Below are positions 15,112 to 40,350 of a stretch of 40,350 nt of DNA, in pieces. Each line of letters starts with the position of its first letter. Position 1 is the stretch's first letter. Under the pieces are notes generated by a model. That model saw only the letters and a program-made list of their open reading frames with translations, did not search any database and was not told the DNA's origin. The position numbers and the translations under genes were made by a program. The DNA lies in IMG/VR virus record IMGVR_UViG_3300045988_141150; one strand, given 5' to 3'. The DNA is from a virus.

Positions 15112-15783
15112 ATGAAGAGATTTATTTGTGGTATTATTGCAATTATCCTTTGCCTTTCGTTGACTGCGTGCGATAGTCCAGAAACAACTACAATTACTGC
15201 TGAGCCGGAGGATGGCGATGTTAAGCTTTCTTTCCTCGCTACTTTCTATGATAATCACGGCGCTCAGTGGTTTCAGTGTGAAGGCGAGACCTTCGACATT
15301 AAGCCTAATAAGGTAAAGGAATGGGCTTATAACACTGATGGTAGTTGGGTTAGTTCTTATTCTCTTTCGTCGGTTGTAAGCATTGACATTGATGGCAAGA
15401 GTGTTGAGAGTTGCGGTTCTACTATTGTTTTTGCTGATAGCCGTCTCACTCAGTATGATGTAGATATTCCCGCGGAAGCCTCGACTAATAGTGGCAATGG
15501 AGCCAGCATTTCCGCGCCTACCGACCGCAGTTGGGATGAGTATTGGGATCTTTCTTGGTGGTATTGGAAGTCTAAGAATTTGAACAATGCAGATGACGGC
15601 AGTAAGATTGTAGTAATTCAGTCTCAGATGGGCGACCCCATTTGTATGTTTGTAGGGGATAACGTCTCTTGGGGCATTCCAAAGAACCTTCCTAAGACTA
15701 CTCAGTTGACAATTGATGGCAAGGCAGTATATATTCATCGTGCGAATTTCGCCATTATTGATACTGATTTATTCAATAATTAA
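15112..15783 (+). CDS. Lipoprotein of 223 aa.
   Basis: It has a signal peptide ending in the lipobox LSLTAC. Confidence 0.6.
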   Translation: MKRFICGIIAIILCLSLTACDSPETTTITAEPEDGDVKLSFLATFYDNHGAQWFQCEGETFDIKPNKVKEWAYNTDGSWVSSYSLSSVVSIDIDGKSVESCGSTIVFADSRLTQYDVDIPAEASTNSGNGASISAPTDRSWDEYWDLSWWYWKSKNLNNADDGSKIVVIQSQMGDPICMFVGDNVSWGIPKNLPKTTQLTIDGKAVYIHRANFAIIDTDLFNN

Positions 15784-21296: not shown

Positions 21297-22403
21297 GTGA
21301 GAGGTTTTAAAACTAATGAACTTTGGTTATTTGAATATCTGGTTCGCTCGACACAAGATGAGTTAAGAGAATATGTTGCCGATGTATTGAAAGCTAAATA
21401 TACTGAAGTAGTTATTACTAAAGAGTATGTTTGTGCGGTTGGCGATATTCCTATTGCTTTAGTAGCTCATCTTGATACTGTGTTTGAGAAACCGGTCAAA
21501 GATTTATATTATGATACAAGAAAAAATGTGCTTTGGTCGCCCGATGGTCTTGGCGCAGATGATAGAGCAGGAGTATATGCGATTCTTCATATTTTGAGAA
21601 ATACATCTTTGCGTCCTTCTATTATTTTTACCACTGATGAAGAAATTGGTGGATTGGGCGCCGAAGCATTAGTATTACAATATTTTGAGTGTCCATTTCC
21701 CAATCTGAAATATATTATTCAGTTGGATAGACAAGGCACAAATGATTGTGTGTTTTATGACCTTTACAATCCTAAATTCATTGATTACATTGAATCTTTT
21801 GGATTTGTAGAGGATTTTGGCACGTTTAGTGATATTAGTGTTTTATGTCCTGAATGGAAAATTTGTGGCGTGAATCTTTCAGTAGGTTATAAAAATGAAC
21901 ATAACCGTATTGAAACATTAAATGCGGGTGCTCTTTTTGATACGATTAATAAGGTAATCCGCATGCTCAAAGAGAAAGATATTCCTAATTTTGAGTATTA
22001 TCGTAATTATCATAGTATTTGGTTCGATAATATTTGTAAGAATTTTCCAACTGATGGCGATGGATTCTACGTTCATTGTAGAGGATGCGGTCAGTTATTT
22101 AGTGAATATGAAACATTTCCAGTAAAGGGATTAGATGGACATACATGTTTTTATTGCCCTGATTGTATTCCCAGTAATGTTGAATGGTGTGCGGAGTGTG
22201 AAGAGGCATTTGAGATTGACCCTGCGAACCCACACAGCGAGTATTGTAAAGATTGTATTGGAGGATTAGTCAAATGTCATATGACTTCGACATCGAAAGC
22301 ATTAAAGAACAGTTCAACAAAGTCATCAGTTACTCCCAAGGAATCAGTAATCCAAAAACAGAAGAACTATTCGAAAGATTCCTCGAAGCCAAAAAAGACT
22401 TAA
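21297..22403 (+). CDS. M20/M28-like Zn metallopeptidase domain followed by a C-terminal zinc ribbon. The true 3' end is uncertain.
   Basis: The motifs HLDTV, DGLGADDRAGV and TTDEEIGGLGA are present, with CxxC pairs at the C-terminus. The last 130 nt overlap the next gene in another frame. Confidence 0.5.
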   Translation: MRGFKTNELWLFEYLVRSTQDELREYVADVLKAKYTEVVITKEYVCAVGDIPIALVAHLDTVFEKPVKDLYYDTRKNVLWSPDGLGADDRAGVYAILHILRNTSLRPSIIFTTDEEIGGLGAEALVLQYFECPFPNLKYIIQLDRQGTNDCVFYDLYNPKFIDYIESFGFVEDFGTFSDISVLCPEWKICGVNLSVGYKNEHNRIETLNAGALFDTINKVIRMLKEKDIPNFEYYRNYHSIWFDNICKNFPTDGDGFYVHCRGCGQLFSEYETFPVKGLDGHTCFYCPDCIPSNVEWCAECEEAFEIDPANPHSEYCKDCIGGLVKCHMTSTSKALKNSSTKSSVTPKESVIQKQKNYSKDSSKPKKT

Positions 22404-23704
22404 TTAAATTTTTTCACGGTCATTTAATTTATGAATGGCCGGAAAAGGTATCTTTTTCCTTAGATGATAAAACTAAAGAGCATCGTCTTGAAGAGTTTCT
22501 TGAAACAATTAATTATACTTATAATAATGAAGACTTAAAGGATTTTATTTCAGTAAATAAAGAAGGATTCTTTAACAATACAGTTATAGATACTTATTTC
22601 TATAAAGATAAAAAGATTCCAAGAGGAATGAAATTAGTTAAGGCTTTTAAGTATTTTGAAGAGAATCCACGCTCTTTGGAAGATATTCAGAATTACGCAA
22701 GTCGTATTATCCAAGAGGACAAGATTGAGGGAACATTATGTTTCTCAGTTCATCCTTTGGATTTTTTAAGCGTAAGTGAAAATACTTATAATTGGCGCTC
22801 TTGCCATGCACTTGACGGCGAATATAGAGCAGGAAATTTATCTTACATGGTAGATAAAAGCACTTTTATTTGTTATTTGCGCGGAGCAGAGAATCAGAAA
22901 CTTCCGCATTTCCCTGAAGATGTTCTTTGGAATTCTAAGAAATGGCGTATGCTTCTTTACATGGAAGATAAGCGACGTGGTTTAATGGCTGGTCGTCAAT
23001 ATCCTTTTATGACAACCAATGCTTTAATTAAAATTAAAGATATTATCAATACTTTTGATAAGACTTTTCAGTTGCGTGAATGGGTAGATGGAGGTATTAA
23101 TACTGTTTCTAATAGGATGAGCACTACTTCTTTTGATGAAGAAACTATTGGATTATCCGAGACATGGATTCCTATTTTATCTCGTTTATATCCTATTAGT
23201 GATATTGTTGAAGATATTGGCGAGCATACTCTTCAATATAATGATTTGCTTTATTCTTCTTGCTATTTACCCATTTATAGTTTAAAATTGTATTATTATC
23301 CATTAGAGACTGATCTTCCTCATTGGTCTATTGGTGGCGATGTCCCTTGTTTACAATGCGGTAAAACTATTATCGAAAGTGGAGAATATATGCGATGCGG
23401 AGACTGTGAATTCAATTATGGAGTAAACGAAGATGATAATTACGGTTATTGCGCTTGTTGCGGTTCTCGTATAATCCTTGATGAAGCAAATTCCGTAGGC
23501 GATGAGAATGAATTGGTTTGCGATAGTTGTGCAGATACTTATTGTAAACGATGCGAATGTTGTAATAATTTATATTATACAGAAGATATTCACTATCATA
23601 AAGGAACTGATATGTATTTATGTCCTTGGTGTTTTAGAGATGCTGATGAAGAAAAAGTTAATAATTTTAGGTCTTTAAAAGACTTTATACATAATTTTAG
23701 TTAA
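22274..23704 (+). CDS. Large protein with C-terminal zinc ribbons. It is a paralogue of the gene at 18141..19745.
   Basis: ATG at 22274 follows a GGAGGATTAGTC RBS, within track ORF 22253..23704. Confidence 0.6.
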   Translation: MSYDFDIESIKEQFNKVISYSQGISNPKTEELFERFLEAKKDLIKFFHGHLIYEWPEKVSFSLDDKTKEHRLEEFLETINYTYNNEDLKDFISVNKEGFFNNTVIDTYFYKDKKIPRGMKLVKAFKYFEENPRSLEDIQNYASRIIQEDKIEGTLCFSVHPLDFLSVSENTYNWRSCHALDGEYRAGNLSYMVDKSTFICYLRGAENQKLPHFPEDVLWNSKKWRMLLYMEDKRRGLMAGRQYPFMTTNALIKIKDIINTFDKTFQLREWVDGGINTVSNRMSTTSFDEETIGLSETWIPILSRLYPISDIVEDIGEHTLQYNDLLYSSCYLPIYSLKLYYYPLETDLPHWSIGGDVPCLQCGKTIIESGEYMRCGDCEFNYGVNEDDNYGYCACCGSRIILDEANSVGDENELVCDSCADTYCKRCECCNNLYYTEDIHYHKGTDMYLCPWCFRDADEEKVNNFRSLKDFIHNFS

Positions 23705-23716
23705 GGAGAATTAGAT

Positions 23717-24022
23717 ATGGCTAAAGGTACAGTAGCTAAGGAACAGATCGCCAAGAAAATGGCGGAAGTATTTGGCGCTGATTGGATCGGCGAGCGAGAT
23801 AAAAAGTATTATCTTTGGGCTAACGAGAATGGTGAGCGAATTCAAATTGCTATTAGTATGACATGCCCAAAGACTCCGGTTGGTGAAGCAGGTGCAACCA
23901 CGGATTCAAATGTTTTGAATTTTGAAGATGGGGCAACCGCAGGTGGAGAAACCCCGATTGAAATTACTACAGATGAAAAGAAAAATGTTGCTGATTTGAT
24001 GGCAAGATTAGGATTGAATTGA
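23717..24022 (+). CDS. Hypothetical protein of 101 aa.
   Basis: The ORF is in the track, with an AAGGAGAATTAGAT RBS. Confidence 0.55.
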   Translation: MAKGTVAKEQIAKKMAEVFGADWIGERDKKYYLWANENGERIQIAISMTCPKTPVGEAGATTDSNVLNFEDGATAGGETPIEITTDEKKNVADLMARLGLN

Positions 24023-24027
24023 TTTAA

Positions 24028-24062
24028 AGAGTAATGTCATTTGACATTACTCTTTTTTTTTG
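24028..24062 (+). terminator. Rho-independent terminator at the early/late boundary.
   Basis: Hairpin AGAGTAATGTCA-TT-TGACATTACTCT followed by a run of nine T. Confidence 0.75.
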
Positions 24063-24194
24063 TTATTATTTATTTAGTAAAAATGATAAATGGTTAGGTT
24101 TAACCGAAATTAAAAAATAAAATAAAATAAATTTTTAATAAAAATAGGATATATAGTATCCTAATTATTTATTTTATTAGGAGGAATTTTAATA

Positions 24195-24611
24195 ATGACT
24201 GAATTAAATAATACCTTTAAGGTAGTTGTTACTGACAATGAAGGCAAAGAGACTGAAAGTATTATAACTGGTCCTATTGTTTTTTCTACAAGTATTAATG
24301 GAGAAACTAGCGGAATTAAATATACTTTTAGACTTCGTGAATATTCAAAAGGCTATGATGTTGAAACTTTAAGTTTACCTAAAGTTTCTGCTCAGCTTAT
24401 TGGAAATTTTGATCGTTCAAAGGTTGCTAAAATTGGTGTATATTATTTAGCTGTTTCTAATGATTATAGAAAAGTTTTTGAAAAAAATGTTGCCAATATT
24501 GCTGAAATGGTATTCGAATATAATAATGATATTGGAGATAAGTCATATGCTAATAGTTATAACACTATAGCAGAGCTTAATATAACTTATACTCCCGAGG
24601 CTGTAAATTAA
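24195..24611 (+). CDS. Hypothetical protein of 138 aa, the first gene of the late block. It contains no TAG.
   Basis: The ORF is in the track, with a TAGGAGGAATTTT RBS. Confidence 0.55.
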   Translation: MTELNNTFKVVVTDNEGKETESIITGPIVFSTSINGETSGIKYTFRLREYSKGYDVETLSLPKVSAQLIGNFDRSKVAKIGVYYLAVSNDYRKVFEKNVANIAEMVFEYNNDIGDKSYANSYNTIAELNITYTPEAVN

Positions 24612-24624
24612 GGAGAGAATATAA

Positions 24625-25347
24625 ATGGCTGGTAGTCGTATTTCATGGAGCGATGTTCGCGCTCTATATGATACTTTAAATACTGCTTAGACTCGTTTTT
24701 CTCAATCTCGCACGGCTGCTCCCTCAAATGAGGGGCGTCGTACGAGAGAAAGTGACATTACTACTTTAAAAAATGAAATTGAAAATTTAAGAAATGTTTC
24801 TTATGTAGGAACTTAGGCTACTTTTTCTAATTTTACCGCTCCAAGAGCTAATGAACTTATGAAACGAGTCCCTTTAGAGGAAATTAGAAGTAAACTTGAT
24901 ACTATAAATGGCATTTGCGCCTATGATGGAGCGAATTATACAAGCAATAATGGTTATCGTGGTGCTAACTATACAAGTAATAATAGTCAACGTTCTTCTT
25001 ATTATTCAAGTAATGATGCTCAACGTTCTTCTTATTATTCAAGTAATAATGCTCAACGTGCTTCAGATTATTCAAGTAATAATGCTCAACGTTCTTCAGA
25101 TTATTCAAGTAATAATGCTCAACGTTCTTCAAATTATTCAAGTAACTATACTTATTATACTGCTAATTATTCAAGTAATAATGGTCATAGATCTGCTAAC
25201 TATAGTAGTAATAATGGTAATAGATCTTCTAACTATAGTAGTAATAATTCTCAACGTTCTTCAAATTATTCAAGTAATTATACTTATAGAAGTGCTTATG
25301 CTTCTAGAAGTTCAAATCGTAGTGGCGCTGGTAGAGTACGCTCTTAA
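24625..25347 (+). CDS. Repeat protein of 240 codons with two in-frame TAG. About 12 tandem 11-residue repeats of the form (A/S)xY(S/T)SNNxQRS follow a 100-residue N-terminal region. It is a candidate multi-core RiPP precursor.
   Basis: ATG follows an AAGGAGAGAAT RBS. The frame is continuous with track ORF 24859..25347 through TAG codons at 24688 and 24814. The underlying nucleotides form a 33-nt tandem repeat. Confidence 0.55.
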
Positions 25348-25378
25348 TTTTTTGAGAAAAAGGAGTTTTATAATATAA

Positions 25379-26878
25379 ATGTTTAAAGAAATGGATATTA
25401 GAGCAATATCTTTAGTTTCTTCATGTGGATGTAATTTACATTGTAAATATTGTCTTATTGAGAATACTTTAAATAATTGCTCTGCAAATTTACAACATGA
25501 AACTATTAAAGCTTTAAATGATGGTACTTTTTTAAATAATGTAAAAGGTATTTTTAAACGTTTAAATCTTGATAGATATAAAATAGAATGTTTTACTTTA
25601 TGGGGTCAAGAGCCTACATTGACATTACATCTTCTTACTGATCATTTGGAAGATTGGTTTAATTATTTCCCAAATATTAATCATATTGACTATTCTACTA
25701 ATGGGATGGATTTTCCTGAAAGAACTGTTAATTTTATTAAAAAGGTTGATGAATTAGCAAATAATGAACTTGCTTTAGAAGTTCAATTCTCTTATGATGG
25801 CACTTACTCAACCAATAATATTAGAAATGCTAATAATGAAAAAATCTTTGAGACTGCTTCAACTGTAATTAAAGAATTAAATAAAATTAAATTTCATAAT
25901 GTAAATGTATCTATTCAATTACATGGTGTTCTTTCTGGAGCTTTAATTCATGAACTTAATACAACTCAAAAAGTTCATGATTATTATAAAGATTTAGATA
26001 ATTTTGGATTTGAATTAGCTGATATTAATCTTAATTAGAGAGTTGAAGTAAATAGTAGTGTATCTATTTGCCCTGAGAATCCAAGAGATGGATCAGTTGA
26101 TGAACGTATTGAATATGAGTCTTTCTTACAACGCATTGTTAATATTGATGTAAGTGATTTTCATGACCCACATCTTCCAGTTAGTATTATTATTGGTTAT
26201 CGTCATCTTTATGAAGAAGTATTTTCTGATTTACATGGATTTACTGGAGAAGATCGTCCAATTACGCCCCAAGAATTAATGCGATTAGTTATGGAAGGAA
26301 ATCAAGAAGCAATTACTGTAGCTTCAAGAAATAATTTTTGTAGTGGTAATTTTAATGAATTAAAATTACTTTATGATGGTACTATGATGTCTTGTCAAAA
26401 CTTTATGTTTGATCTTGATGGTAATAATGTTAAAGATGATGGTACTATTGGAGCACAATTGAGAAAAGACACTCGTCGCACTAAAACTGATTGCATTAAT
26501 CTTTTAACTGATAGTGAAGAAGATATTAATAAAGTTATATATAAATATAATATGTATAAAACACATTCCTTCCCATTTATGTTTCAAGCAACTGTAAATA
26601 CTTTACAAATGCTTAATGAATGCAATCAATTAAATTCTATTTACAAGTATAATCCTGATAAATTATTAAGATTGGCATTAATTGCAACAAAAATTGATGC
26701 TTGTACTTATAATAATTTTATTTCTTCTGGTAGCGCGTTGTTAAGAAGTGTAGGCACTTTAAGAACTCAATCAGCACTATTTATGTATGTAGATAGAGAA
26801 AATAATTTACTTAAACCCGAAGAAGAATGGTTCCGAAATACTGAAAATATGAATGAATATAGAGGAGAAAGTAATTAA
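25379..26878 (+). CDS. Radical SAM enzyme of about 499 codons with one in-frame TAG at 26036.
   Basis: It carries CGCNLHCKYC, a CxxxCxxC motif. Track ORFs 25379..26038 and 26279..26878 are in the same frame, joined through a TAG with no TAA or TGA between them. Confidence 0.6.
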
Positions 26879-28281
26879 TGAATATTAGTGAAGGTTGTCA
26901 ATTAGATAATAATAAATATTTTGAAAAATTTATAGATAATTATATTTTTAATAGGGATCACCAAGAGGAAGGATACTGGATTAATGGAGAGTCTTTTGAG
27001 CTTATTATAAGACCCGAATGTAATCAACAATGTGAATATTGTTATGTTGCACGGTATGGAGATAAACTCTATCCGATGGAGAAACGCGCCGATAAGGAAA
27101 CTCTTGTTCATAATACAGATATTATTTTGAATTATATCTTTAAAGAAAGAAAAGTTTTATTTCATGAAATGGAACTTTTTGCTGGAGATTTATTTTATGA
27201 TGATATTGGATTTGAAATTCTCGAATTAATGTTTAAATATTATAAAGAATTATTTGATGAACATCCAAATATTTTTAATTTCCATCCTCGTATTGTAATT
27301 CCTAATAATTTTAGTTTTGCTATTGATGATAAAAAAGCTAAAAAAATGGAAGAGCTTTTAGCTAAATTTAAAACTATCAATATGGAAATAAGCCTTTCTT
27401 GTTCTATAGATGGACCTTATAATAGTGTGCGCGAGCGCGATAAAGATGATAGTTATTATACTAAAATTCTTGAATTCCTTCAAAGAAATCCTTGTGGTAT
27501 TCATCCTATGATTTCTCCAAGTAATATTGAGAGTGCTATTAAGAATTTTGATTGGTGGGACGAACAATATGAAAAGTATAATCTTGCTGGTGAAGACATT
27601 CATGATTTTCAACCTATGTATTTGGAAGTCCGCAATGATGAATGGACTGATGAGAAATTAGATCATTATCTTGAATTTTTAACTCATATGCTTGAAGTAA
27701 GATTTCATAAAAATGGTGAGTCTGTAGATAAATTGGCAAGACATATTTTCTTAGGAGATGGAAAAGAAGGTTCTTTACCTTGTCTTGGTAATTATGACCC
27801 TATTGGATTAACTTCTACTTGGAATAGTGAAGAATATACTTGCGCGATTTCGCATTAGACTTGTCTTTATGTGGCGAGTTTTGAATTTGCGCCTTGCCAT
27901 AGAACTTCTTATCCTCAGTTTCTTGGTGGACGTCTTGATGTAAAAGATGACAAAGTAGTTGGTATTACTGCAATTAATCCTACTGTGTATAGTGTAATTA
28001 AAACGAATAATACACATATGAATATTGGTTGTTTAACTTGTCCTTTTGATCCTTATTGTTTAAAAGGATGTTTAGGCGCTCAGTATGAAGCCACAGGTGA
28101 TTTATTTGTTCCCGGTGAAAGCGTTTGTAAATTACATAAAACACATTTAACTTTTTTAGTAAAGACTTATTGTGAGTTGGGATTAACTAAAATTGCAGTT
28201 GAAAAAAATTATTTTAAGAGTGAAGCAGATAAAGAAAAATGGCTTACTTTATGTCGTAAATTGGGGTATTATAATGATTGA
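26878..28281 (+). CDS. Radical SAM/SPASM-domain enzyme of about 467 codons with one in-frame TAG at 27856.
   Basis: It has an N-terminal CNQQCEYC radical SAM motif. Its C-terminal Cys cluster CLTCPFDPYCLKGCLG...VCKLH has the SPASM pattern. Track ORFs 26878..27858 and 27871..28281 are in the same frame. Confidence 0.6.
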
Positions 28282-28576
28282 AGAAATGAAAAGACAAATT
28301 CAACACTTAGATGATACTTTTGATCCTTCTAATGTTGGAGATTATAAAGATTTATTATATGTAATCTATTTAAATTGGATTGAAAATAATGGAGAAAACG
28401 AAGAAGTCAATTCTCTTATTAACAATTTAATTAAAAGAATTATTGATTCTAGCATTAATGATAATAATAATTGTGATAATTGTAATGAAGATGAAGATCC
28501 TAATATGAGTGAAGATTATTTAATTTATCGCCATTTCTTAGGATATAAAATTCCTGGCTATTGGCGTAATCATTAA
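28274..28576 (+). CDS. Small acidic protein of 100 aa. It could be an accessory protein or a precursor.
   Basis: ATG lies in the frame of track ORF 28193..28576 and overlaps the upstream TGA. Confidence 0.45.
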   Translation: MIEEMKRQIQHLDDTFDPSNVGDYKDLLYVIYLNWIENNGENEEVNSLINNLIKRIIDSSINDNNNCDNCNEDEDPNMSEDYLIYRHFLGYKIPGYWRNH

Positions 28577-29157
28577 TGTTAATTAATTTATATAATGCTC
28601 GTCAAACTTTATTAAGATCAGTAAAGTTTGACGAGCGTGAATGCGATGATATTGTTTTTGGATTAAATTTTCCAAAAGAAATTACTTTTTGCAAAATTGT
28701 AAATAATTCAAATGATATAGAATATTCTTCATTAAATTATCTATATAGTCAATTAAAAGATTTAGAATATAAAGATATAAAAATTATTGAATTAGTTTTT
28801 AATCAAAAACAAAAATTTACGTTTGAATCTACAGTAAAATCTATTTTTTATAGAACAATGTTATATTCAAGTTAGGGACAATTGGAATTTAAATTATATT
28901 TAACTTTACGATTTGAAGAAGAACATCCAATTATTTACGATAAAGAAGAATAGATTTTAAAGTGTGACAAAAATTGTAAACAGTTAAATAGAAAAATACA
29001 TCGTTGTGAATTTTTTCATAGTGATTTAAATGATATAAATGAAATTTGTACGGAATGTTTTTTGTAGGAAAGAGATAACCAAATAAAAGAATTGGTTAAT
29101 TATAATAGAGATATTATAAATGTTTTGGAGAATAAATATGGAAATAGATAGAACTAA
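28576..29157 (+). CDS. Hypothetical Cys-containing protein of about 193 codons with four in-frame TAG.
   Basis: It extends track ORF 28576..28875 through TAG codons to a TAA at about 29155. Confidence 0.4.
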
Positions 29158-31216
29158 AAATTATCAAGGGATTCCTCCTTATACTAATCCAATATGGAAA
29201 TCGGTTTATGATGGTGTTAGTTTAGAAATGCATATTGTAGATCATTGTAATCTTAATTGCGCAGGATGTAATCATTTTTCCCCTTTAGCAGAACCTTGGT
29301 ATATTGATTTAGATGATTTCCGTGATCAGATTACTTTTGCTTATAAAAAAATTCCAAATATAAAACTTTTTATGATTTTAGGTGGAGAACCTACTTTGCA
29401 TCCAAAATTATTTGAAATATGTTAGATTGCTAGAGAAGTTTTCCCAAAAAATAAAGTAGAAATTAAAATATTAAGCAATGGGTGTCATTTACAAGATGCT
29501 TTTAAACATGAGAAAGAATATCAAGATATGGGAGTAATATTTGATATTACTACTTATGGGAAATATACTGATCATAAAGCGGTAGAATATTTAGACAGTC
29601 ATGGTTTAGGTTTTAATCATAATTCAAGATTATTTATGCGACAATAGCTTGTAAATGAAGCAGGAACTACTGATATAAATGAAGTATATTTTCATAAATG
29701 CCCGCATTAGTTACCTTGTTTTACTTTAAAAAATTATAAAATTTATATATGTCCTTTTTCTGCACATTTGGATATTTATAGAAAAAAATATAATGTAAAT
29801 ATTCCAGAAGATGAAAGTGATTATTTGCGATTAGAGGATATAAATAATTTAGATGATTTACATAATTTTATTTTTAAGCCTAAAAATATTTGTAGATATT
29901 GCGATGGAACTATGTCTAAAGCCTCTTGGATTTGGCACAAATATTATGATACAAAATCGGAATTTATAGTTCCAATGGAAGATGCTTATTTTAGAGATTA
30001 TGATTTTTATTTAAAATTAGTTAATGATAAAGAAAATTTTTTAGAAAATTATTAGTTATTTAAAGAAAACAGATGCCCAATTGAATTTAGATATAATACT
30101 TATTATTTAAAAAAATGTTTTACTCGTTTTATTGATGGAAAAATGGATATTATAATACCTTATTATAATATGAATGATTAGCAAATTATTAATTTGTATA
30201 ATAATTTATCTACCCAAACAATTATAAAAGATTGTTGTGTATATTTTATTAGCGACCATTCTTTCTATGATAAAAAACTTATTGAGATATTTGATGAAGC
30301 GAGTTTTCCTTGTTTCTTTTTTAAGAATTTAAAACGAAAAGGACCAGGTCTAACTCGTAATTTAGGATTAGAATATTCTTTTAATAAATATGTGTTATTT
30401 TGGGATTCTGATGATTTATTCCCAAATGATAATGTTTTAGAAATTTTATATAATTCAATAAAACATAATGAGAAAGATTTTGGAGTATTTAAAATAGCTA
30501 ATACTGATAAATCAGTTGAAAAGATTAATTTAATTCTTAAAAGAGATTTTCTTAATAAAAATAATATAAAATATTCAAAATTTTTCTTTGGAGAAGACAG
30601 TATTTTCTTGGATAGATGTGATATTTATGGTGAATCTTATGAGTTAGAAGACTAGAATTTAGGTCTTTATATAACTTAGTTAGAAGACAATCCTAATTGT
30701 TTATCTCATTCTAATTCTAACATGGTAATTACAGCATATATTAATAAAATAATTGTATTTTTTGCTAATTTTATTGATGTTTTGAAATTAGAAAATATTG
30801 ATGAAAATCGTAAACAAAGTACTTTAAGACGGAATCTTTATAGAATTATTAATGAAATAAAATCAATAAGTGATTTAGATTCTTCTTTTTATGGATATGA
30901 AAATAATTATTTTTTAGAAAAAATTCTTCTTTTAATTTATTATATTTTATATACTATGTATAATTTATATAGTAACAAAGAAGATTTTAATAATATTCCC
31001 AATTTGTGTAATTTAGATAAACAAATTATAGAAGATATCAAAAGTTAGAAAATTAAATTTAGTCTTCTAAGAGGAGAATGTATAACTAATTTTGATGATA
31101 TTAAAAATGAAATTTATCCATTGTTAAATTATCTTAACAATGAATTATGCTATGTGCCTACTTATGAATGGTTTCTGAATTATTTAGATGGAAAAGGAGA
31201 GAGTATTTATGATTGA
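29138..31216 (+). CDS. Continuous 692-codon frame with 9 in-frame TAG and no TAA or TGA. It has an N-terminal radical SAM domain (CNLNCAGCNH, GGEPTLHP and a C-terminal CRYCDG) and a central GT2 glycosyltransferase domain (IIIPYYN...GPGLTRNLG...FWDSDD). It is one fusion protein or two to three cistrons.
   Basis: Track ORFs 29120..29425, 29768..30055, 30194..30655 and 30722..31048 all share one frame and are separated only by TAG. The frame ends at a TGA at 31214. Confidence 0.5.
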
Positions 31217-31391
31217 AACTTATCAAGAATATAAAGAAAAAGTTTATTTTCTTCTAAATAATTTTTTAGATTTTACTAAAGGAGATAAACCTTATTTATT
31301 TAATATGCCTTCAAAATTAGGCAATCTTCCTAATCTAAATGAATATTTATATTTTTGTTTTAATAAATCTGATGCAGGAGAAAATAAATGA
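31209..31391 (+). CDS. Small protein of 60 aa.
   Basis: ATG follows an AAAGGAGAGAG RBS, in the frame of track ORF 31188..31391. It ends in TGA. Confidence 0.45.
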   Translation: MIETYQEYKEKVYFLLNNFLDFTKGDKPYLFNMPSKLGNLPNLNEYLYFCFNKSDAGENK

Positions 31392-31930
31392 GGTTTACTG
31401 ATTATCATTTTGGATAGGCAGAGTCTGACTTTTGGACTTTATTAAAAGAATTTCTATTAAGGTTTGATCCCAATAGTATTTATGATTTTTGGATTTTATT
31501 TATTTATTTTTAGTTAGGTATTATTAGAAAAGATAGATTTATCATTTATTAGGTATAGTATATTTTAAAAGAAAAAATAGATTTTGAAGAAATTAATGAA
31601 GTAAATTTTAATACAATTATTCCAATAGAAAAGATAAATTTATCTAGTTTAAAAGATTGTATTTGGATAAGCTATTGGATTTGTTAGTATAATTATTAGA
31701 ATGATGAAAATTTAATTTTAATTTATAGTGAGAAAATATTTAATAATCTTACTAATATTTTTGAGCCGGATATTGTTATAGATATTCCAATAGTGTAGTA
31801 GAGTAATAAAATATGTAAAATGTGCGGTTTAGAGTCTAAATCTAATGGATAGAATATACCATTTTTTAAAATAAATGATAATAAATATTTATGTCCTAAT
31901 TGTTATTATTTATTAAAATTAAATGAATAA
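31388..31930 (+). CDS. Hypothetical protein of 180 codons with a C-terminal CxxC...CxxC zinc ribbon. It has about 10 in-frame TAG.
   Basis: ATG overlaps the upstream TGA. The frame is free of TAA and TGA for 543 nt in a region of about 25% GC. It is invisible to the standard-code track. Confidence 0.4.
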
Positions 31931-32023
31931 TTATTAAAACCTACTTTTATAGTAGGTTTTAATTGATTTTTAATAAAAAATAATGTATTATAATTATAAG
32001 ATAAATGAAAAGGGTGTGTTTAT

Positions 32024-33808
32024 GTGAATAATTATAATCAACATTATAAAGAAATAAGTCCTATTGAGACTGTTAATAATATTAAAAATTTTTTAGAAGG
32101 ACGCGGATTTACTTGTGTTGAGGAAGCTTTACGACAAGAACAATCAACTACTTGGAGTCTTGTATTAAATCTTGAATACAAAGGACATTTTGTGCTAAAA
32201 ACTTATGGCAAAGGTGTTACAAAAGAATTCGCCAGAGCTTCTGGTTATGCGGAAATGTATGAGCGTTTTTGTAATGGAATGCACTATCTTTGTAATTCTT
32301 TTCTTTGTGCGGAAAAAATTGAATTAAATAGAAAAAATTATGGTTATTCTTTGTTTAAAAATGAAAAGCCTTTAAGTTATAAAGAGGCACTTGGAGGAGA
32401 AGATACTCTTTTATATAAACTTTTTGATCGTTTGAATAAGAAAGATAATGGTTTATTAGAGGATTATTTTAAAACTATTTATAATAATGAATTTTTTGGA
32501 ATACCATTTAAAGGAGTCAACATTAATAAAACTTTATATATGGATCCTCGTCTTCTTCAACGTTATCATGGTAGTTCGGGAATGGCAGCCGGCAATACTT
32601 TTAATGAAGCCTTAAATCAAGGTTTATCTGAAATTTTCGAGCATTATGTTTTAAGTAATTTTTATATTGATATTGATAATAAAGATTTTTATTTTTATGA
32701 TACAGATAGTATTAAAGATGAAAAATTAAAAAATATTATTAGTGCGATTAAATCTCATAATAATAACTTTTATATTATTGATATGTCAAGAACTTATAAT
32801 GTGCCTGTTATGGTAGCAATTTTGATTAATAAATATAGTGGTACTGTAGCTATTAATTTTGGTGCTTTCCCTGTATTTGAAATTGCAGTTGAGCGAGTTT
32901 GTACTGAAATGTATCAAAATTGTTTTTCTTTTGATACAAGAAAAACTTCAGTTGTATCTCCGTATTATTCTTTAGATAAAGAAGATATGGTTATAGATGG
33001 CGGTTCTTGTATTACAAATCTTAATACTTTTCCTGAGAGTTTATTCTTGAATAAGAAATTTGTAAATACTATTAATAAAGATGTATTTTTATCTTATACT
33101 GATAAAAATTACTCTAATGATGAAATCTTAGAGCATAATAAAAAGATTGCTACTAATATTGGAGCAGATATTTATTGTGCTGATGTATCTTTAATTGATA
33201 CCGTATCTGCGATTAGTATTTATGTTGATAATCTTGACGGGCTATGGAAATCTTTCTTTGATAGATGCCAAGGAGTTAAAGAAACTGGAGAAGCAATTAC
33301 TATAACTAAAAATAAACATTTGGCCATTAAAAACTATTTAAATAATAAAGATAAAGTATATGATGTAATTAAATATTGTCTTGATTATTATAATATTACT
33401 TTTGACAAAATTGTAGATAGATTTTGTGGTTTACTTACTCATGGAGATCAATTAGTTGCTTATAATAATAAAAATATATTATTAACACCTAATGAGATGT
33501 TTGTTAAAAACCTTTATATGGATGCAACAGGATATTTATTAGAAGATGAAGGATTTTCTTTAGATATTTCAGTTAGTTGTTTTTATACTTATTATAAAAA
33601 ATATTTAACTTTATTAGCATATGTTCACAGTAGAAAATATACTAAAGAAGATATGATTAAAATTTTCAAAGAATTTGATTATACTTTTACTGATGAAGAT
33701 TTTAAACATATTACGGATAGAAAATATTTAGTAGAAAAATGTATTTTAGAGCCTATGTATAATACATTTAGAAGCAATGATTTTAAAGAAATGATTAAAA
33801 ATTATTAA
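32024..33808 (+). CDS. YcaO-domain protein of 594 aa.
   Basis: HGSSGMAAGNTFNEALNQGLSEIFEHY matches the YcaO ATP-binding signature, which has the form xGSNGLAsGNTxxEAxxQGLxExxER. The ORF is in the track and has no TAG. Confidence 0.65.
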   Translation: MNNYNQHYKEISPIETVNNIKNFLEGRGFTCVEEALRQEQSTTWSLVLNLEYKGHFVLKTYGKGVTKEFARASGYAEMYERFCNGMHYLCNSFLCAEKIELNRKNYGYSLFKNEKPLSYKEALGGEDTLLYKLFDRLNKKDNGLLEDYFKTIYNNEFFGIPFKGVNINKTLYMDPRLLQRYHGSSGMAAGNTFNEALNQGLSEIFEHYVLSNFYIDIDNKDFYFYDTDSIKDEKLKNIISAIKSHNNNFYIIDMSRTYNVPVMVAILINKYSGTVAINFGAFPVFEIAVERVCTEMYQNCFSFDTRKTSVVSPYYSLDKEDMVIDGGSCITNLNTFPESLFLNKKFVNTINKDVFLSYTDKNYSNDEILEHNKKIATNIGADIYCADVSLIDTVSAISIYVDNLDGLWKSFFDRCQGVKETGEAITITKNKHLAIKNYLNNKDKVYDVIKYCLDYYNITFDKIVDRFCGLLTHGDQLVAYNNKNILLTPNEMFVKNLYMDATGYLLEDEGFSLDISVSCFYTYYKKYLTLLAYVHSRKYTKEDMIKIFKEFDYTFTDEDFKHITDRKYLVEKCILEPMYNTFRSNDFKEMIKNY

Positions 33809-33819
33809 TAGGAGATTAT

Positions 33820-34698
33820 ATGAATATTAATTTTAATTGCCCTGAATTTTACTATGGGATTGAAGTATATGATAAACTTTTTGAATTACAAGAAATTGCT
33901 CCAGAAGCATTTTATCCAGAAGCCAAGGTAAAGTATATATATGGCTGTCTTCCTAATATGATTTGGAATGGTGGCGGATTTATGGATGGACGTCCAGAGC
34001 ATAATATTGATTATCTTTGCGCAATGCGTGATTTTTATGAAAAAAATAATATTATTTTACGTTTTACATTGACAAATCCGCTTTTAGAAGAAACTGACGT
34101 TTATGATAGATACTGTAATGAAATGTTAAAACTTTTTGATAATGGTATTAATGAAATTATTGTTAATTCTCCTATTCTTGAGCGCTATCTTCGAGACAAA
34201 TTTCCTAATTATAAGTTGACTAAAAGTATTACGGCAGCAAAAGAAGATTATGATTTTGTAAAAGCTCTTGATAATTATGAAAGCATTGTCCTTCCTCGTC
34301 GTCACAATAGAAATTGGGAACTTCTTGATTCTATTCCAAAAGATAAAAGAGAGAAAATTGAAATTCTTGCTGATGAAAGTTGTCCTATTGATTGTCCTCG
34401 TCTTTATACTCATTACAATGTTTTTGCAAATTTTAGTTTGTTTAAAAAAATTGATGACTCTCAGCGTAATTGTACTACTATGAAAAATAATGGCGCAGTT
34501 TTTCCTGAAATTGATAATAAAGATATGATTTATATGGATGAAATTTTAAATACTTATTTACCAAAAGGATATAATAATTTTAAGATTTCTGGGCGCAATT
34601 GCGCTGACCATTGTGCAAAATCTATTACTCCGTATTTTTTTAAACCAGAATATCAATTAGAAGGTTTTTGCGAGTTGCTCGATATTGGTTTGAGTTGA
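33820..34698 (+). CDS. Hypothetical protein of 292 aa, possibly a partner of the YcaO protein.
   Basis: The ORF is in the track. It begins 12 nt after the YcaO stop and has several Cys pairs. Confidence 0.5.
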   Translation: MNINFNCPEFYYGIEVYDKLFELQEIAPEAFYPEAKVKYIYGCLPNMIWNGGGFMDGRPEHNIDYLCAMRDFYEKNNIILRFTLTNPLLEETDVYDRYCNEMLKLFDNGINEIIVNSPILERYLRDKFPNYKLTKSITAAKEDYDFVKALDNYESIVLPRRHNRNWELLDSIPKDKREKIEILADESCPIDCPRLYTHYNVFANFSLFKKIDDSQRNCTTMKNNGAVFPEIDNKDMIYMDEILNTYLPKGYNNFKISGRNCADHCAKSITPYFFKPEYQLEGFCELLDIGLS

Positions 34699-34702
34699 TT
34701 TT

Positions 34703-34741
34703 AACTCCTTACTATTTTATTTAGTAAGGAGTTTTTTTTTT
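34703..34741 (+). terminator. Rho-independent terminator.
   Basis: Hairpin AACTCCTTACTA-N7-TAGTAAGGAGTT followed by a run of ten T. Confidence 0.75.
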
Positions 34742-34822
34742 ATTTAACCAGATTAAATTAATGACTTCTTATAAATTTTTAAATTTTATAGAAATAATAA
34801 AATTTATAAGGAGGTCATTTAA

Positions 34823-35377
34823 ATGGCAATTCCAAAAGCAATAGAACATATGCGTAGTGGAAGTGGCGGTTTAGAAATTATTCCAATTATTTCTACTGAT
34901 GGATTAACTTACACAGGAACCGCAAAATCTATTAAAGAATATAAAGACGGAATGATTATTGGTCTTATTCCAAATATGAATAATATTGCGACAAATCCAA
35001 TTACTAATATAACGATAAATATAAATAATTTAGGAGCATTAAAATTAACTCAATATTATATTAAAAAAGAACATTCTAATAATGGATTAGGGTGTTGGCA
35101 CAGCAATACTGCTGTAGAAGCCAATTTTTTATATAAAGATGAAGCTTTTATTGGATAGATACAATTAGGGTCATCTAGTGGTGATTATATTTTACCTATT
35201 AATCCAGGATTAGACTTAGCTTAGATTACTAATGGTTCTATTGGGTCTAATTTGTCTGTCACTGCTAATTCTTCTTATTTAAACAATAATATTTTAAGAA
35301 ATATTAAAGTATCTACTTCTGCTCCCACCGCTTCAGACGGAAATGTTGGAGATATTTGGATTTAGTATTTCACTTAA
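34823..35377 (+). CDS. Putative virion or tail protein of 184 codons with three in-frame TAG.
   Basis: Track ORF 34823..35158 continues in frame through TAG to a TAA at 35375. An AAGGAGGTCATTTAA RBS lies upstream. Confidence 0.45.
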
Positions 35378-35393: not shown

Positions 35394-36809
35394 ATGCCAA
35401 ATACTTATAATCCTTCTGGAACTTCTATAACAGATTATTCTTCTATTAAATTTATTCCAGGAGATATTATTAATAGTAGCTATTCAGGAGCGGTAAATCC
35501 AGTAAAACTTCCAACGGGAAATTATCAATTAGAATGTTGGGGTGGCTATGGTGGAATTGGTTATTCTGGTTCTTTAACTTCATCAACAACAACTTCATGG
35601 ATATATATAGGAACTAATAATGCAACTAGTTATTTTAGCATTAATAATGATTCAAATTATTATTTCCGTCAAGATGGAAATGACTGGATAGCTACAAATG
35701 GCGGTATACATTCAAGTACTGCAACCACTACATTAACTTGTACTTCTGCGGGAACTTACAAGATTTATTATTATTATCAGACTGAAGTAAATTGTGATAA
35801 AGTTACTTTAACTGTTGGAGGATCAACGGTTTTAAATGCCGTATCGGGGTCATAGTCTTTAACTGAAGCTGGTAGCTATTCTTTATCATCAGGGTCTACT
35901 ATTGTAATGACTTATTCTAAAGATAGTTCAGTAAATGCCGACAATGAAGAAGTTTATTTTTAGATTTAGAAATAGGAGAGTAATACTACTTATACTCCCA
36001 CAAGTTCAAAAAATAGTTATTGGGGTGGAGCAGGAGGATATTCTACAGGAATTCTTTCTTTATCAGCCCCTACTGTTATCTATTTGTATACAGGAGGTTA
36101 GGGTAATTATTCAAGTAATAGTGAAAAAGGAAAAGTAGTTAGTGGCGGATTTAACGGAGGAGGTAGCTCTAGAATCAGATGGTATACTTCTGCTTATACA
36201 TCAGGAGGTGGCGGAGGTGGCGCTTCCGATGTTCGTATAGGCCAAGACTCTCTTTACGCCCGTGTAATTGTTGCTGGCGGTGGTGGCGGTGGCGCAGGAG
36301 AAAGCAATTCTTCTATTAAATAGGGCGGTGGATTAACTGGTAATTCTGCTGTTGAAGAATATAAAGCTACGTAGACTAAAGCCGGAACAAATGGATCTTT
36401 TGGCCAAGGGGCTGATGCTAGTGGATCTGCCAATTATAATTATGGTCCCGGTGGTGGTGGTGGAGGCTGGTACGGTGGTGGTGCTTCTACTAATGTTAGT
36501 GACAGTTCCGCCGATTATAGAACTTATAATGGCGGAGGTTCTGGCTATGTATATACTTCATCAACTGCCTCTAATTATCCTTCTGGCTGTTTGTTAAATA
36601 GTAATTATTATTTAACAAATGCTTCTACTGCTATAGGATATAGTAAAACCAATCCAGGAGGGCAACATGGGTATATTCGTATTACAGTATTATCTCCATT
36701 AAATGTAAAAATTAATCCTAACACCTATGCTCCTATTAAAGCAATATATACAAAAATAGATAACACAACTTGGAAAGGAGGAATGACTACATGGCAACCT
36801 ATGACTTAA
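35394..36809 (+). CDS. Glycine-rich tail-fibre-like protein of 471 codons with 7 in-frame TAG.
   Basis: Track ORFs 35394..35855, 36352..., and 36591..36809 share one frame. The N-terminus contains LPTGNYQLECWGGYGG. The C-terminus contains SGYVYTSSTASNYPSGCLLNS...GYIRITV. Confidence 0.55.
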
Positions 36810-38128
36810 CTTCTTCGATTCCTTCTTCTTCTTCTTTAAGAACGGGGGATATATTAAATTGTCCTTATAGTGGATCTGCTAAATCAATTACTCTTCCAAA
36901 AGGCACTTATAAATTAGAATGTTGGGGAGCACAAGGTGGAAATGCAGGTTATTATAGTTATGTTCATTCAACCCCTAATGGAGGAAAAGGTGGATACTCT
37001 ACTGGTGTAATCACTTTATCTTCAAGTGTTATAGTATATCTTTATACCGGAGGACAAGGAGGAAGTACTATCGGGAATAAGCTAGACTAGAATTCAGTAG
37101 CTACAGCACCTGGTGGATTTAATGGAGGTGGCATCGCTAATCAAATGGGAGCCGCTGGTGGTGGTGGAGCTTCTGATATTCGCATAGGCCAAGATTCTCT
37201 CTATGCTCGTATAATCGTCGCTGGAGGCGGTGGTGGTGGAGGCAATGCGAGTAGTTCTACTTTATTATCTTGTGGCGGAAATGGTGGAGGAACTACTGGT
37301 GGAACTCCACCTAATTAGCACAATAATAGAACCCCAGGAAAAGGAGGAACTCAAACTGGAATAACAGCTAGTCGTTCATCATCAATTTCTGCGGGATTTG
37401 GTAATGGAGCTGGTGGTACGGGAGAAAATCTTCGTGGAGCCGGTGGCGGTGGCTGGTATGGTGGAACTATGGGTGAAAATTCAACTGGCGGAGGTGGAGG
37501 TTCTGGTTATGTATATACTTCCTCAACTGCTTCTAATTATCCATCTGGTTGCTTATTGAATAGCACTCATTATCTTAGTTCTGCTTCTACAATAGCTGGC
37601 GACACTTCATTCACTTCTCCAACAGGGTCATCTGAAACAGGTCATAGCGGAAACGGGTATATAAGAATTACTATTTAGTCTATTGTTAACTGGGCTTATT
37701 CTACTGTATCAATTCCTGCTCCTACTTATAGTAAATAGGATACTTCTTCTTGGACTTTATCTCCGAGTGCTTGCAGGTATTTTTCTTTTACCCCTACTAT
37801 TTCAGGAGATTTTATTGTTTATTCCAATTCTTCAATAGATACTTTTGGCTATTTAACATCAAATATTGTTTCTCTTAATAGTAGTGGATAGCCTTCTTCT
37901 AATATTTTAGCTAGTGATGATGATTAGGCAAAAAAATATGGTGGATCTGGAAGTAATTTTGGTATTTGTTATAAAGTTACTGCTGGAACTACTTATTATA
38001 TATATGTTAAGCCTTATCGTGATAGTACAGCAAATAGTTCAGTATATTTAACTTATTATATGGCTCATCCTGACAGTAGAGTATATGTAAAAACAGATAG
38101 TACAACATGGAAATTAATAACCAATTAA
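36791..38128 (+). CDS. Glycine-rich tail-fibre-like protein of 445 codons with about 8 in-frame TAG. It is a paralogue of the gene at 35394..36809.
   Basis: It shares LPKGTYKLECWGAQGG, SDIRIGQDSLYARIIVAGGGGGG and SGYVYTSSTASNYPSGCLLNS...GNGYIRITI with the upstream gene. It ends at a TAA at 38126. Confidence 0.55.
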
Positions 38129-38136: not shown

Positions 38137-38165
38137 TTGACATTTTAAAAAAAATAATATATAAT
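38137..38165 (+). promoter_or_regulatory. Family-A promoter: TTGACA, a 17-nt spacer, TATAAT.
   Basis: It matches the motif. It drives the tRNA-Trp region. Confidence 0.6.
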
Positions 38166-38299
38166 ATATTTATAAAATAAAGAAAGACCTTTACAGCAAA
38201 AATAACTTCCAGAATAAACTAATGATTAAGTCATAATCCTTTAAGATTAAAATAATGGTTCAACTCCATTTTCCGGACAAAGTTAAGGTCTTGTTTTTA

Positions 38300-38794: not shown

Positions 38795-39342
38795 GGGAGT
38801 GTAGCTCAGTTGGTTAGAGCACGCGGCTGTTTACTTGACCTTATCATTTTCTTATAAAAAAATGAAATGAATAGTAAACAAAAAGGTAATATTACCGAGC
38901 TTGAAACAATGTTAGCATTTATGAAACTTGGTTATAATGTTCTTACTCCTTACGGAGATTGTGAGCGTTATGATTTTGTGGTTGATGTAAATGGTAAATT
39001 TATTAGAATTCAAGCTAAAACATCGCGAACCGAAGATGAAGGAGCTTCTTTTATTTTTTCTGGTAGAAGTTGCCATAGAAAAGATGGAAGAATAGTTCAT
39101 CATCAATATACTAACGAAGAAATTGATTACTTCGTAACTACTTTTAATGGAAAATGTTATTTGATTCCAGTGGAAGAGTGCGGAGCAGATAAAAGACTTC
39201 GTATTCTTCCACCTAAAAACAATCAAGTAAGAGGTATTACTTGGGCGAAAGATTATGAGTTGGAGGAAGTAGTAAGAAAATGGTAAGCTGATGTGTAAGC
39301 AACCGCGGTTTGTCGTGAGTTCGAGTCTCTCCTCTCCCGCCA
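38795..39342 (+). tRNA. Interrupted tRNA gene, tRNA-Asp-like with an inferred anticodon GUC. The 5' half is 38795..38830 and the 3' half is 39300..39342. A 469-bp insertion in the anticodon loop separates them.
   Basis: The 5' half reads GGGAGTG-TA-GCTCAGTTGGTTAGAGC-A-CGCGG-CTGT. The 3' half reads CAA-CCGCG-GTTTGTC-GTGAG-TTCGAGT-CTCTC-CTCTCCC-G-CCA. The anticodon stem CGCGG pairs with CCGCG perfectly. The acceptor stem pairs 6 of 7. The D loop resembles tRNA-Asp. Confidence 0.55.
38867..39286 (+). CDS. PD-(D/E)xK nuclease of 139 aa encoded inside the tRNA insertion. It resembles Hjc and I-Ssp6803I and is a candidate homing endonuclease.
   Basis: The ORF is in the track. The motifs ELETML (E), GDCERYDFVVDV (D) and IRIQAKTS (Q/E-x-K) occur in the order and spacing of the Hjc / I-Ssp6803I fold. 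Confidence 0.55.
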   Translation: MNSKQKGNITELETMLAFMKLGYNVLTPYGDCERYDFVVDVNGKFIRIQAKTSRTEDEGASFIFSGRSCHRKDGRIVHHQYTNEEIDYFVTTFNGKCYLIPVEECGADKRLRILPPKNNQVRGITWAKDYELEEVVRKW

Positions 39343-40225: not shown

Positions 40226-40350
40226 GATTAAGATTAGAAAGAAGTTGGAAGATCTTCTTAAAACTTCCATTAGATTAGAAAGAAGTTGGAAGATCTTCTT
40301 AAAACTTCCATTAGATTAGAAAGAAGTTGGAAGATCTTCTTAAAACTTCC
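40226..40350. repeat. 41-bp direct tandem repeat, ATTAGATTAGAAAGAAGTTGGAAGATCTTCTTAAAACTTCC, present in at least three copies and running off the window end.
   Basis: Copies sit at 40226, 40269 and 40310. Each unit contains the nested inverted repeats GAAGTT..AACTTC and GAAGATCTTC. Confidence 0.8.

Follow-up and report, generated by a model that had tools for sequence, protein, structure and literature searches.

Paralogous glycine-rich proteins with a predicted ALK/LTK-type fold, one conserved and one with a variable core, in a TAG-recoded phage locus

Introduction

The receptor-binding protein PtsHN10M of a Clostridioides difficile prophage contains a glycine-rich domain recognised by Pfam (amino acids (aa) 14-267) and a C-terminal fragment (aa 259-570) that binds C. 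difficile cells on its own, and the full-length protein binds the low-molecular-weight SlpA subunit of the host S-layer (PMC9615553). It is the closest characterised relative of the products of two adjacent phage genes, here called A and B, which occupy positions 35,394 to 38,128 of a viral DNA of 40,350 nucleotides (nt) (IMG/VR record IMGVR_UViG_3300045988_141150); this whole stretch is referred to below as the window. A preliminary description of the window, made from its letters without database searches, had read A and B as tandem glycine-rich, tail-fibre-like proteins, duplicated and diversifying host range. Here we describe the two genes and the gene directly upstream of them, G, and find that A is strongly conserved among related phages and that B combines constant ends with an exchangeable glycine-rich core.

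Two further systems provide points of comparison. In gp38 of T4-like phages, receptor specificity is determined by hypervariable segments lying between conserved glycine-rich motifs, which themselves make up a polyglycine-II scaffold (PMC13243192). In a PBSX-like tailocin of Brevibacillus laterosporus, two adjacent, imperfectly repeated glycine-rich genes beside the tail genes are proposed determinants of the target spectrum (PMC9406221); that pair, which can be likened to A and B by description, belongs to a bacteriocin, whereas A and B belong to a jumbo phage. It is already on record that the glycine-rich family exists, occurs in phages and is associated with receptor-binding proteins, and because A and B fall into such a large, catalogued family we regard their importance as moderate. 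A literature search retrieved no paper that connects glycine-rich proteins of phages to the fold of the human receptors ALK and LTK or that describes a hypervariable glycine-rich core. What the locus offers is a natural matched comparison, with two paralogues per genome, one frozen and the other carrying a swapped glycine-rich core next to a constant C-terminal domain.

Results and discussion

Gene structure and paralogy

Under the standard genetic code, the region of A and B breaks up into a patchwork of short open reading frames (ORFs). All 13 in-frame stops within the two frames are TAG, and both frames end in TAA; the coordinates and reading frames of the preliminary description are correct (Table 1). 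The motifs that it quoted are likewise all present: A contains LPTGNYQLECWGGYGG, SDVRIGQDSLYARVIVAGGGGGG and SGYVYTSSTASNYPSGCLLNS...GYIRIT, and B contains LPKGTYKLECWGAQGG and SDIRIGQDSLYARIIVAGGGGGG together with the same C-terminal module.

Composition-corrected blastp aligns A and B with 44% identity over 267 aa (E = 1e-28) and, in addition, with 18 identities in 32 positions at the N-terminus. The Smith-Waterman score is 529, compared with 105 +/- 15 for 300 shuffled sequences (z = 29), and with all glycines masked it is 236, compared with 48 +/- 7 (z = 28). Alignment statistics thus identify A and B as true paralogues, in agreement with the earlier proposal of a paralogous pair. Blocks that are identical in amino acids are just 81-82% identical in DNA, which rules out recent gene conversion between A and B and indicates that the blocks have been kept by selection on the protein. 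The two terminal modules that the proteins had been said to share are real blocks of similarity; they correspond to the beta-strands that open and close a single domain, and not to the termini of the proteins.

Domain family and predicted fold

The only Pfam family found in A and B is PF12810, the ALK/LTK glycine-rich domain, which both proteins match far above its curated gathering threshold of 24.5 bits (Table 1). Membership of this family had been suspected in the preliminary description, which took the family to be known mostly from eukaryotic parasites. That characterisation is outdated; PF12810, now defined as the ALK/LTK glycine-rich domain, is widespread among phages and bacteria alike. 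In B the domain is uninterrupted, and in A it is split by an inserted domain. PHROGs assigns A and B just to families of unknown function (1589, 5811 and 7388), and NCBIfam gives no match for A, B or G. The family is very large, with 5087 and 3750 proteins at E <= 1e-5 among the scored candidates.

AlphaFold2 (AF2) models were built on orthologues 96% identical to A (P0121) and 97% identical to B (P0001), with predicted local distance difference test (pLDDT) scores of 91.8 and 84, respectively. In Foldseek searches against the PDB, the tumour necrosis factor (TNF)-like/glycine-rich (TG) supradomains of human ALK and LTK rank at the top for both models with a probability of 1.0 (E = 2.6e-7 to 1e-5 for the B model and 3e-6 for the A model); the matches include 9g5i, 7nx4, 7lrz and 7nx1 (E = 2.6e-7 to 5e-5). 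At the sequence level, a family profile reaches ALK among PDB sequences (E = 2e-4), and B as a single sequence has no significant match there. In the AF2 models, the glycine-run segments are neither helix nor strand according to DSSP and have pLDDT values of 90-99, consistent with polyglycine-II helices. The predicted fold of A and B is a TNF-like beta-sandwich of the ALK/LTK type, whose glycine-run segments may be packed as a hexagonal lattice.

These results also bear on two concerns: that the likeness of A and B is a low-complexity artefact, which the preliminary description named as an outcome that would speak against it, or that the ORFs are not genes. The domain is indeed about 25-27% glycine and the ORFs are fragmented under the standard code, but the similarity persists at z = 28 when glycine is masked, TAG alone interrupts the frames, thousands of homologues exist, and the Pfam match is strong and the models are confident. 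We consider an artefact refuted.

Compared with the TG supradomain of human ALK/LTK (PDB 7nx4, 7lrz, 7nx1, 7n00), A and B belong to the same Pfam family and share the same predicted fold at about 15-18% sequence identity. Unlike the human receptors, A and B lack a transmembrane segment as well as EGF-like and kinase domains, and they have no known ALKAL-type ligand. Membership of A and B among receptor tyrosine kinases was rejected, since PF12810 is their sole Pfam match and a kinase domain is absent. In BFVD, many viral proteins of this fold, from gut phages, Caulobacter phages, cyanophages and giant viruses, carry the UniProt name 'receptor protein-tyrosine kinase'. No kinase domain was found in those that were checked, and this misleading label appears to be an annotation artefact, apparently carried over from the ALK-derived name of the domain.

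A constant and a variable paralogue

We compared G, A and B in the same five genomes, so that the three genes are matched, and used 75 orthologues of B and 96 of A as a wider check. Averaged over pairs of the five genomes, identity is 95% for G and 91% for A. The ends of B exceed 85% identity, whereas the stretch from about aa 50 to 260 is just 23-53% identical and contains many insertions and deletions (indels). The asymmetry between A and B also holds over the wider set of orthologues. Orthologues of A are 86-96% identical over their full length. In DNA, identity to the relatives falls sharply from about 0.9 to 0.23-0.7 at about 36.9 kb and recovers at about 37.5 kb, which delimits a hypervariable cassette within the glycine-rich core (Table 1). 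Of the earlier idea that duplicated proteins diversify here, the part concerning B stands, as its core diversifies across genomes; A, in contrast, is conserved.

Variation within the B core follows the glycine pattern. Its 60 glycine positions have an entropy of 0.74 with 1% gaps, compared with 1.69 and 15% gaps at the 130 non-glycine positions. The cores fall into at least 11 discrete types that stay unmerged as the identity threshold is lowered from 80% to 60%, whereas the B flanks form one cluster. The cassette of the window is present in just two near-identical database proteins and is otherwise at most 58% identical to any protein, orthologue or not. B shows the mosaic evolution expected of receptor-binding proteins, with a conserved part that would serve attachment and an exchangeable one that would set specificity.

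Because A is encoded by glycine-rich DNA of the same kind and is yet conserved, slippage, relaxed constraint or mutational instability alone do not explain the behaviour of B. Allele exchange under diversifying selection can explain it. As a separate candidate, we considered B as the target of a diversity-generating retroelement and rejected this, since the genomes differ by many indels and identity drops to less than 50%. Repeats in the region are confined to the paralogous A/B blocks described above, and a near-identical template repeat is absent.

The B core resembles gp38 of Salmonella phage S16 (PDB 6F45) and of phage PP01 in that conserved glycine motifs alternate with hypervariable segments. 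No gp38 family appears in the Pfam results for A and B, 6F45 is not among the 50 best PDB matches of the B model in Foldseek, and gp38, in contrast to B, has no TNF-like sandwich. The likeness is thus one of analogy and not of family membership.

Recoding and organisation of the G-A-B unit

Codons aligned to the in-frame TAGs were collected from five related genomes. Because CAA is the codon most often found opposite TAG (20 of the 58 non-TAG codons), including at conserved positions such as the Q of GAQGG, TAG is most likely read as glutamine (code 15), which is the best-supported reading. Across the window, in-frame TAGs occur in plus-strand genes between 24.6 and 38.1 kb and are missing from most genes between 16.6 and 24 kb. 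In the relatives, G, A and B hold 4, 5 and 6 TAGs, respectively, and the five genes upstream hold none; G-A-B is thus a TAG-recoded islet. A canonical CUA suppressor tRNA was detected neither in the window nor, for the relatives, within 10 kb downstream.

The three genes are closely packed, with a gap of 16 nt between G and A and an overlap of 19 nt between A and B, which lie in different frames. Strong ribosome-binding sites precede G (AAGGAGG at 34808), A (GAGGAGG) and B (AAAGGAGGAA at 36775-36784). We found no promoter-like or terminator-like signals inside G-A-B; a terminator-like hairpin and a sigma-70-like promoter site lie on either side of it (Table 1). The same order of G, A and B is found in related contigs of 160-198 kb. 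The neighbouring 7 kb of DNA has no match among 50,697 phage records, indicating that this phage lineage is absent from deposited phages. Recoding has been proposed as a regulator of late lytic genes (PMC11210395), and, given that G-A-B is TAG-recoded, the unit is probably expressed late. Inspection of the sequences of A and B revealed no signal peptide, hydrophobic N-terminus, transmembrane segment or lipobox; the lack of a signal peptide or hydrophobic N-terminus fits assembly in the cytoplasm.

Table 1. Positions of the genes, domains and signals discussed in the text. Coordinates refer to the window unless another contig is named.
Feature	Position	Strand	Description
Gene G	34823..35377	+	184 aa, 3 in-frame TAG; conserved first gene of the trio
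Gene A	35394..36809	+	471 aa, 7 in-frame TAG, TAA stop; conserved paralogue, glycine-rich domain split by insert
Gene B	36791..38128	+	445 aa, 6 in-frame TAG, TAA stop; variable paralogue
A, N-terminal beta-strands of glycine-rich domain	35466..35558	+	aa 25-55; GDIINSSYSG...LPTGNYQLECWGGYGG; PF12810 profile ~1-23; aligns to B aa 19-50
A, inserted beta-sandwich on long beta-hairpin (predicted)	35559..36008	+	aa 56-205; weakly CBM6/29/35/86-like
A, remainder of PF12810 domain	36009..36692	+	aa 206-433; Pfam E = 3.9e-35, 122.4 bits, profile 24-243
B, complete PF12810 domain	36884..37675	+	aa 32-295; Pfam E = 2.6e-46, 159 bits, profile 2-242
B, hypervariable cassette (glycine-rich core)	36932..37510	+	aa ~48-240; glycine runs conserved, segments between runs hypervariable with indels
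B, C-terminal beta-sandwich (predicted)	37679..38125	+	aa 297-445, ~150 aa; PPC-, collagen-binding- and C. perfringens enterotoxin C-terminal-domain-like
Terminator-like hairpin	34703..34733	+	12 bp stem followed by T-run; closes upstream island, precedes G-A-B
Sigma-70-like promoter site	38137..38165	+	perfect consensus TTGACA-17-TATAAT; directly 3' of B stop, at end of G-A-B and start of tRNA array
G-type C-terminal motif, window	35314-35377		end of G
G-type C-terminal motif, contig L010	9264-9995
G-type C-terminal motif, contig L012	9466-10008
G-type C-terminal motif, contig L012	12212-12487
Island, radical SAM	25379-26878
Island, radical SAM/SPASM-like protein	26878-28281
Island, radical SAM+GT2 fusion	29120-31216
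Island, YcaO	32255-33808
Island, U32-like protein	33820-34698

Accessory domains

The middles of the two proteins had been described as divergent, and this is borne out. A carries its insert within the glycine-rich domain and B an extra domain after it (Table 1). The A insert, of about 150 aa, is flanked by strands at aa 56-72 and 186-209 (DSSP), and its Foldseek matches to carbohydrate-binding modules (CBMs) have E-values of 5e-3 to 2e-2 and target-normalised TM-scores (TMt) of about 0.4. For the C-terminal domain of B, whose modelled structure is like that of pre-peptidase C-terminal (PPC) and collagen-binding domains, Foldseek returned 5sv5 (E = 1e-4, TMt 0.69) and 1nqj (TMt 0.70), and TMt is 0.6-0.67 against the claudin-binding C-terminal domain of Clostridium perfringens enterotoxin (CPE). 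The B domain is 80-94% conserved among orthologues. No homology between the A insert and the B C-terminal domain could be detected.

A probable role in host adhesion

Among deposited phages, the detectable homologues of A and B are genes annotated as 'glycine rich protein' in C. difficile phages. CDMH1 gp30 and phiCDHM11 gp21 match PF12810 with E-values of about 1e-48 and are located after the baseplate genes and a PF12571 tail-fibre gene and before the holin/lysin genes. With its C-terminus, CDMH1 gp30 matches a solved structure named 'Tail fiber protein' (PDB 31he, E = 2e-77), and about 54% identity is shared by the CDMH1 protein and PtsHN10M. More distant homologues in uncultured phages, many of them tandem genes or single chains with two or three fused glycine-rich domains, adjoin fibre genes with Peptidase_S74, Phage_fiber_2, BclA_C or GLGNVDNT-repeat features. 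Among the structural matches to the B model in BFVD are cyanophage proteins whose annotation reads virion structural protein or short tail fibre. Since PtsHN10M has the same domain, the homologues in C. difficile myophages lie at the receptor-binding-protein locus and distant ones in tail-fibre clusters, a receptor-binding role of A and B is plausible. We hold, with moderate confidence, that G-A-B encodes exposed host-adhesion proteins of the tail-fibre or receptor-binding type.

The likeness to the C. difficile PtsM type is closest for B, which in the same way has an N-terminal PF12810 domain followed by a separate beta-rich C-terminal domain and is phage-encoded; A departs from this layout in having an inserted CBM-like domain and no C-terminal domain. 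The C-termini are unrelated, being of the PtsM/31he kind in C. difficile phages and PPC-like in B. The distribution of variation is reversed as well: in the PtsM type the C-terminus is the more diverse part (PMC9615553), whereas in B the glycine-rich core varies and the C-terminus is conserved. Finally, the PtsM-type gene is part of the tail module, where it comes after a PF12571 attachment protein, whereas the locus in the window is isolated and G is not a PF12571 protein.

A mechanism can be proposed on this basis. G-A-B is a translationally coupled unit of three TAG-recoded genes, probably expressed late, in a gut phage of about 190 kb; its products may be carried on the virion, presumably at the tail. 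The glycine-rich domain would serve as a rigid scaffold in both A and B. As the constant copy, A could provide a structural connection or recognise a surface component that does not vary, for example a cell-wall glycan. B would be the specificity copy, with fixed glycine runs and strain-specific loops that are swapped between phage strains as a cassette of about 580 nt; such a swap would retarget the phage, as the hypervariable segments of gp38 do, with no homology to gp38 implied. The second beta-sandwich in each protein could bind a ligand, and G may connect the A/B pair to the particle as an adaptor. The contrast between the paralogues points to the loops on the glycine scaffold as the specificity surface, an assignment of the B core that we put forward tentatively and consider rather doubtful. 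If correct, it would aid host prediction for the widespread, uncultured, TAG-recoded gut phages of this size.

Several observations weigh against a tail-fibre role, which is only partly supported: (i) We found no recognisable capsid, tail, baseplate or tape-measure gene over the 35 kb upstream of the locus in the window or, for the relatives, over 10 kb downstream, and Pfam and PHROGs searches annotated neither G nor any of ten flanking proteins as structural. A tail module therefore gains no support from local synteny. (ii) The trio sits between unannotated, TAG-free genes and an array of tRNA and putative homing-endonuclease genes. (iii) The CBM-like match of the A insert is weak, with an E-value of 5e-3 at best. 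(iv) The N-terminal glycine-rich fragment of PtsHN10M binds neither cells nor the partner protein PtsHN10L (PMC9615553). As this is the sole tested phage case of an ALK-type glycine-rich domain, the only available experiment does not back the B core as a binding face. (v) In an uncultured Bacilli metagenome-assembled genome (contig L017, 6912-8954), the domain forms the C-terminal part of a 680 aa protein that has an N-terminal transmembrane helix and whose gene adjoins housekeeping genes. The domain thus also occurs in a membrane-anchored cellular protein and is not specific to fibres. (vi) G carries none of the known fibre domains and is not similar to the C. difficile attachment protein (CDMH1 gp29). 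Of the receptor-binding or tail-fibre role assigned in the preliminary description, the homologues make the function plausible, and the expected tail or baseplate genes are missing from the vicinity.

The distance of the locus from any recognisable tail module would also fit particle-exposed proteins that are not tail receptor-binding proteins, such as capsid, neck or whisker decorations or auxiliary adhesins for glycans or mucus in the gut, with B varying, for example, through avoidance of recognition by host or animal immunity. The resemblance of the accessory domains to carbohydrate- or collagen-binding modules and the finding that the glycine-rich domain of PtsHN10M is not the cell-binding part point in the same direction. 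However, every informative homologue context is a tail-fibre or receptor-binding-protein locus, and discrete cassette swapping between conserved flanks is the classic pattern of a host-range determinant, so we consider decorations of this kind unlikely.

The isolated position of the trio among non-structural genes, the use of the domain by membrane-anchored cellular surface proteins and the resemblance of the B C-terminal domain to receptor-binding domains of clostridial toxins could suggest instead that A and B are late proteins outside the virion, released at lysis or displayed by the infected cell, with functions in superinfection exclusion, receptor masking or toxin-like activity. Against this stand the lack of a signal peptide, transmembrane segment or lipobox in A and B and the fact that C. 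difficile phages use their homologues as structural receptor-binding proteins. A role away from the particle is improbable to our minds, and adhesion to the host by way of the virion remains the reading that we prefer.

Gene G and its C-terminal motif

G gives no Pfam or PHROG match, and the PF12571 domain was not found in it. A remote-homologue search yielded 35 matches, the larger of which have no informative Pfam domain. The C-terminal motif of G, STSAPTASDGNVGDIWIQYFT, is common to proteins encoded directly upstream of glycine-rich-domain genes in two unrelated phages (L012_180, E = 1e-8; L010_243, E = 7e-7; L012_91, E = 8e-6). Its consensus, [LV]R.I..ST..P...DG..GD[IV]W[IV].Y.., is strictly C-terminal and is found at the end of many phage proteins of 91-570 aa that are otherwise unrelated; one protein matched through the motif alone bears a Phage_fiber_2 domain. 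The motif may serve as a docking element. It was absent upstream of glycine-rich-domain genes at 64 loci in bacterial genomes, which limits its linkage with such genes to some phages.

The upstream island

A low-GC (20-28%) island of 10.7 kb, at 24060-34734, lies between a gene for a 101 aa protein (23717-24022) and G. It is absent from four relatives (L005-L008), in which the flanks join at 24059/34735 with an overlap of about 7 nt, and is present in another (L009) with 75% DNA identity. Its genes for radical SAM, radical SAM/SPASM-like, radical SAM+GT2, YcaO and U32-like proteins (Table 1) contain up to nine in-frame TAGs. From its gene content, the island looks like a phage-carried peptide-modification cluster of the type that makes RiPPs (peptides synthesised on the ribosome and modified after translation). 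The first long gene of the island (24625-25347) encodes a 240 aa protein whose C-terminal half consists of a 33 nt unit (NYSSNNAQRSS) repeated 10.5 times in tandem with 82% matches. The protein has no family match, and because it is rich in Ser, Asn and Tyr and is encoded by the first long gene, it is a candidate substrate of the adjacent radical SAM/YcaO enzymes.

In an unrelated phage contig of 124 kb (L012, 12512-17082), an 813 aa protein combines a Cys-rich CXXX-repeat region of about 215 aa with two glycine-rich domains. Two genes downstream, beside a GH25/CHAP lysin, lies a CXXX-repeat radical SAM maturase (TIGR04115, 520 bits, cutoff 350). The 813 aa product is a putative fibre protein and radical-SAM substrate.

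Because the island abuts G both in the window and in L009, encodes radical SAM/SPASM-like, radical SAM+GT2 and YcaO proteins, and has a parallel in the CXXX-repeat fusion of L012 with its nearby maturase, G-A-B might work together with the island, the glycine-rich proteins being substrates, scaffolds or partners of peptide-modifying enzymes. Four of the five relatives examined have G-A-B without the island, however, and the island has a repeat-rich candidate substrate of its own; moreover, A and B contain no CXXX or comparable repeat, and no protein of the island is homologous to the L012 maturase. A functional coupling of this kind is very unlikely in our estimation. By analogy with L012, where a glycine-rich protein fused to CXXX repeats is encoded beside a maturase, one might further speculate that RiPP-type maturases service phage fibres of the glycine-rich family and that the island modifies its NYSSNN-repeat protein, G, A and B, or both. 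This is a long shot; if true, it would mean enzymatically cross-linked or modified phage adhesins.

Other features of the window

About 80 nt after the B stop lies an aberrant tRNA-like gene (38208-38278; Rfam tRNA, 37.5 bits) that is 98% conserved across the relatives. It has a 5 bp anticodon stem and a 6-nt loop, which reads CTTTAA in the window, ATTTAA in four relatives and CTTCAA in another (L007). If the anticodon is taken as the three bases after U33, it is UUA (ochre) or UCA (opal). The tRNA array that starts at the promoter-like site contains five tRNAs in the window and 16-19 within 10 kb in the relatives. A PD-(D/E)XK endonuclease gene (38867-39286) lies within the array, to which the relatives variably add GIY-YIG and HNH genes; these look like homing endonucleases.

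Two paralogous proteins of 534 and 476 aa are encoded at 18141-19745 and 22274-23704 (32% identity over 152 aa, E = 8e-18). Both share an HPLD..S.N...W.SC core and Cys-rich C-termini, and their genes contain no TAG; only the second has a family match, to phrog_18912 (unknown function). At its very end, the window holds a 41 nt unit with the palindrome GAAGATCTTC in 2.9 perfect tandem copies (40231-40350), an array that may continue beyond it. In the early, TAG-free part of the window, a lipoprotein-like gene (15112-15783; lipobox LTAC) matches DUF5052 (E = 2e-42), and its product is possibly a superinfection-exclusion or host-surface protein, which may hint at the host.

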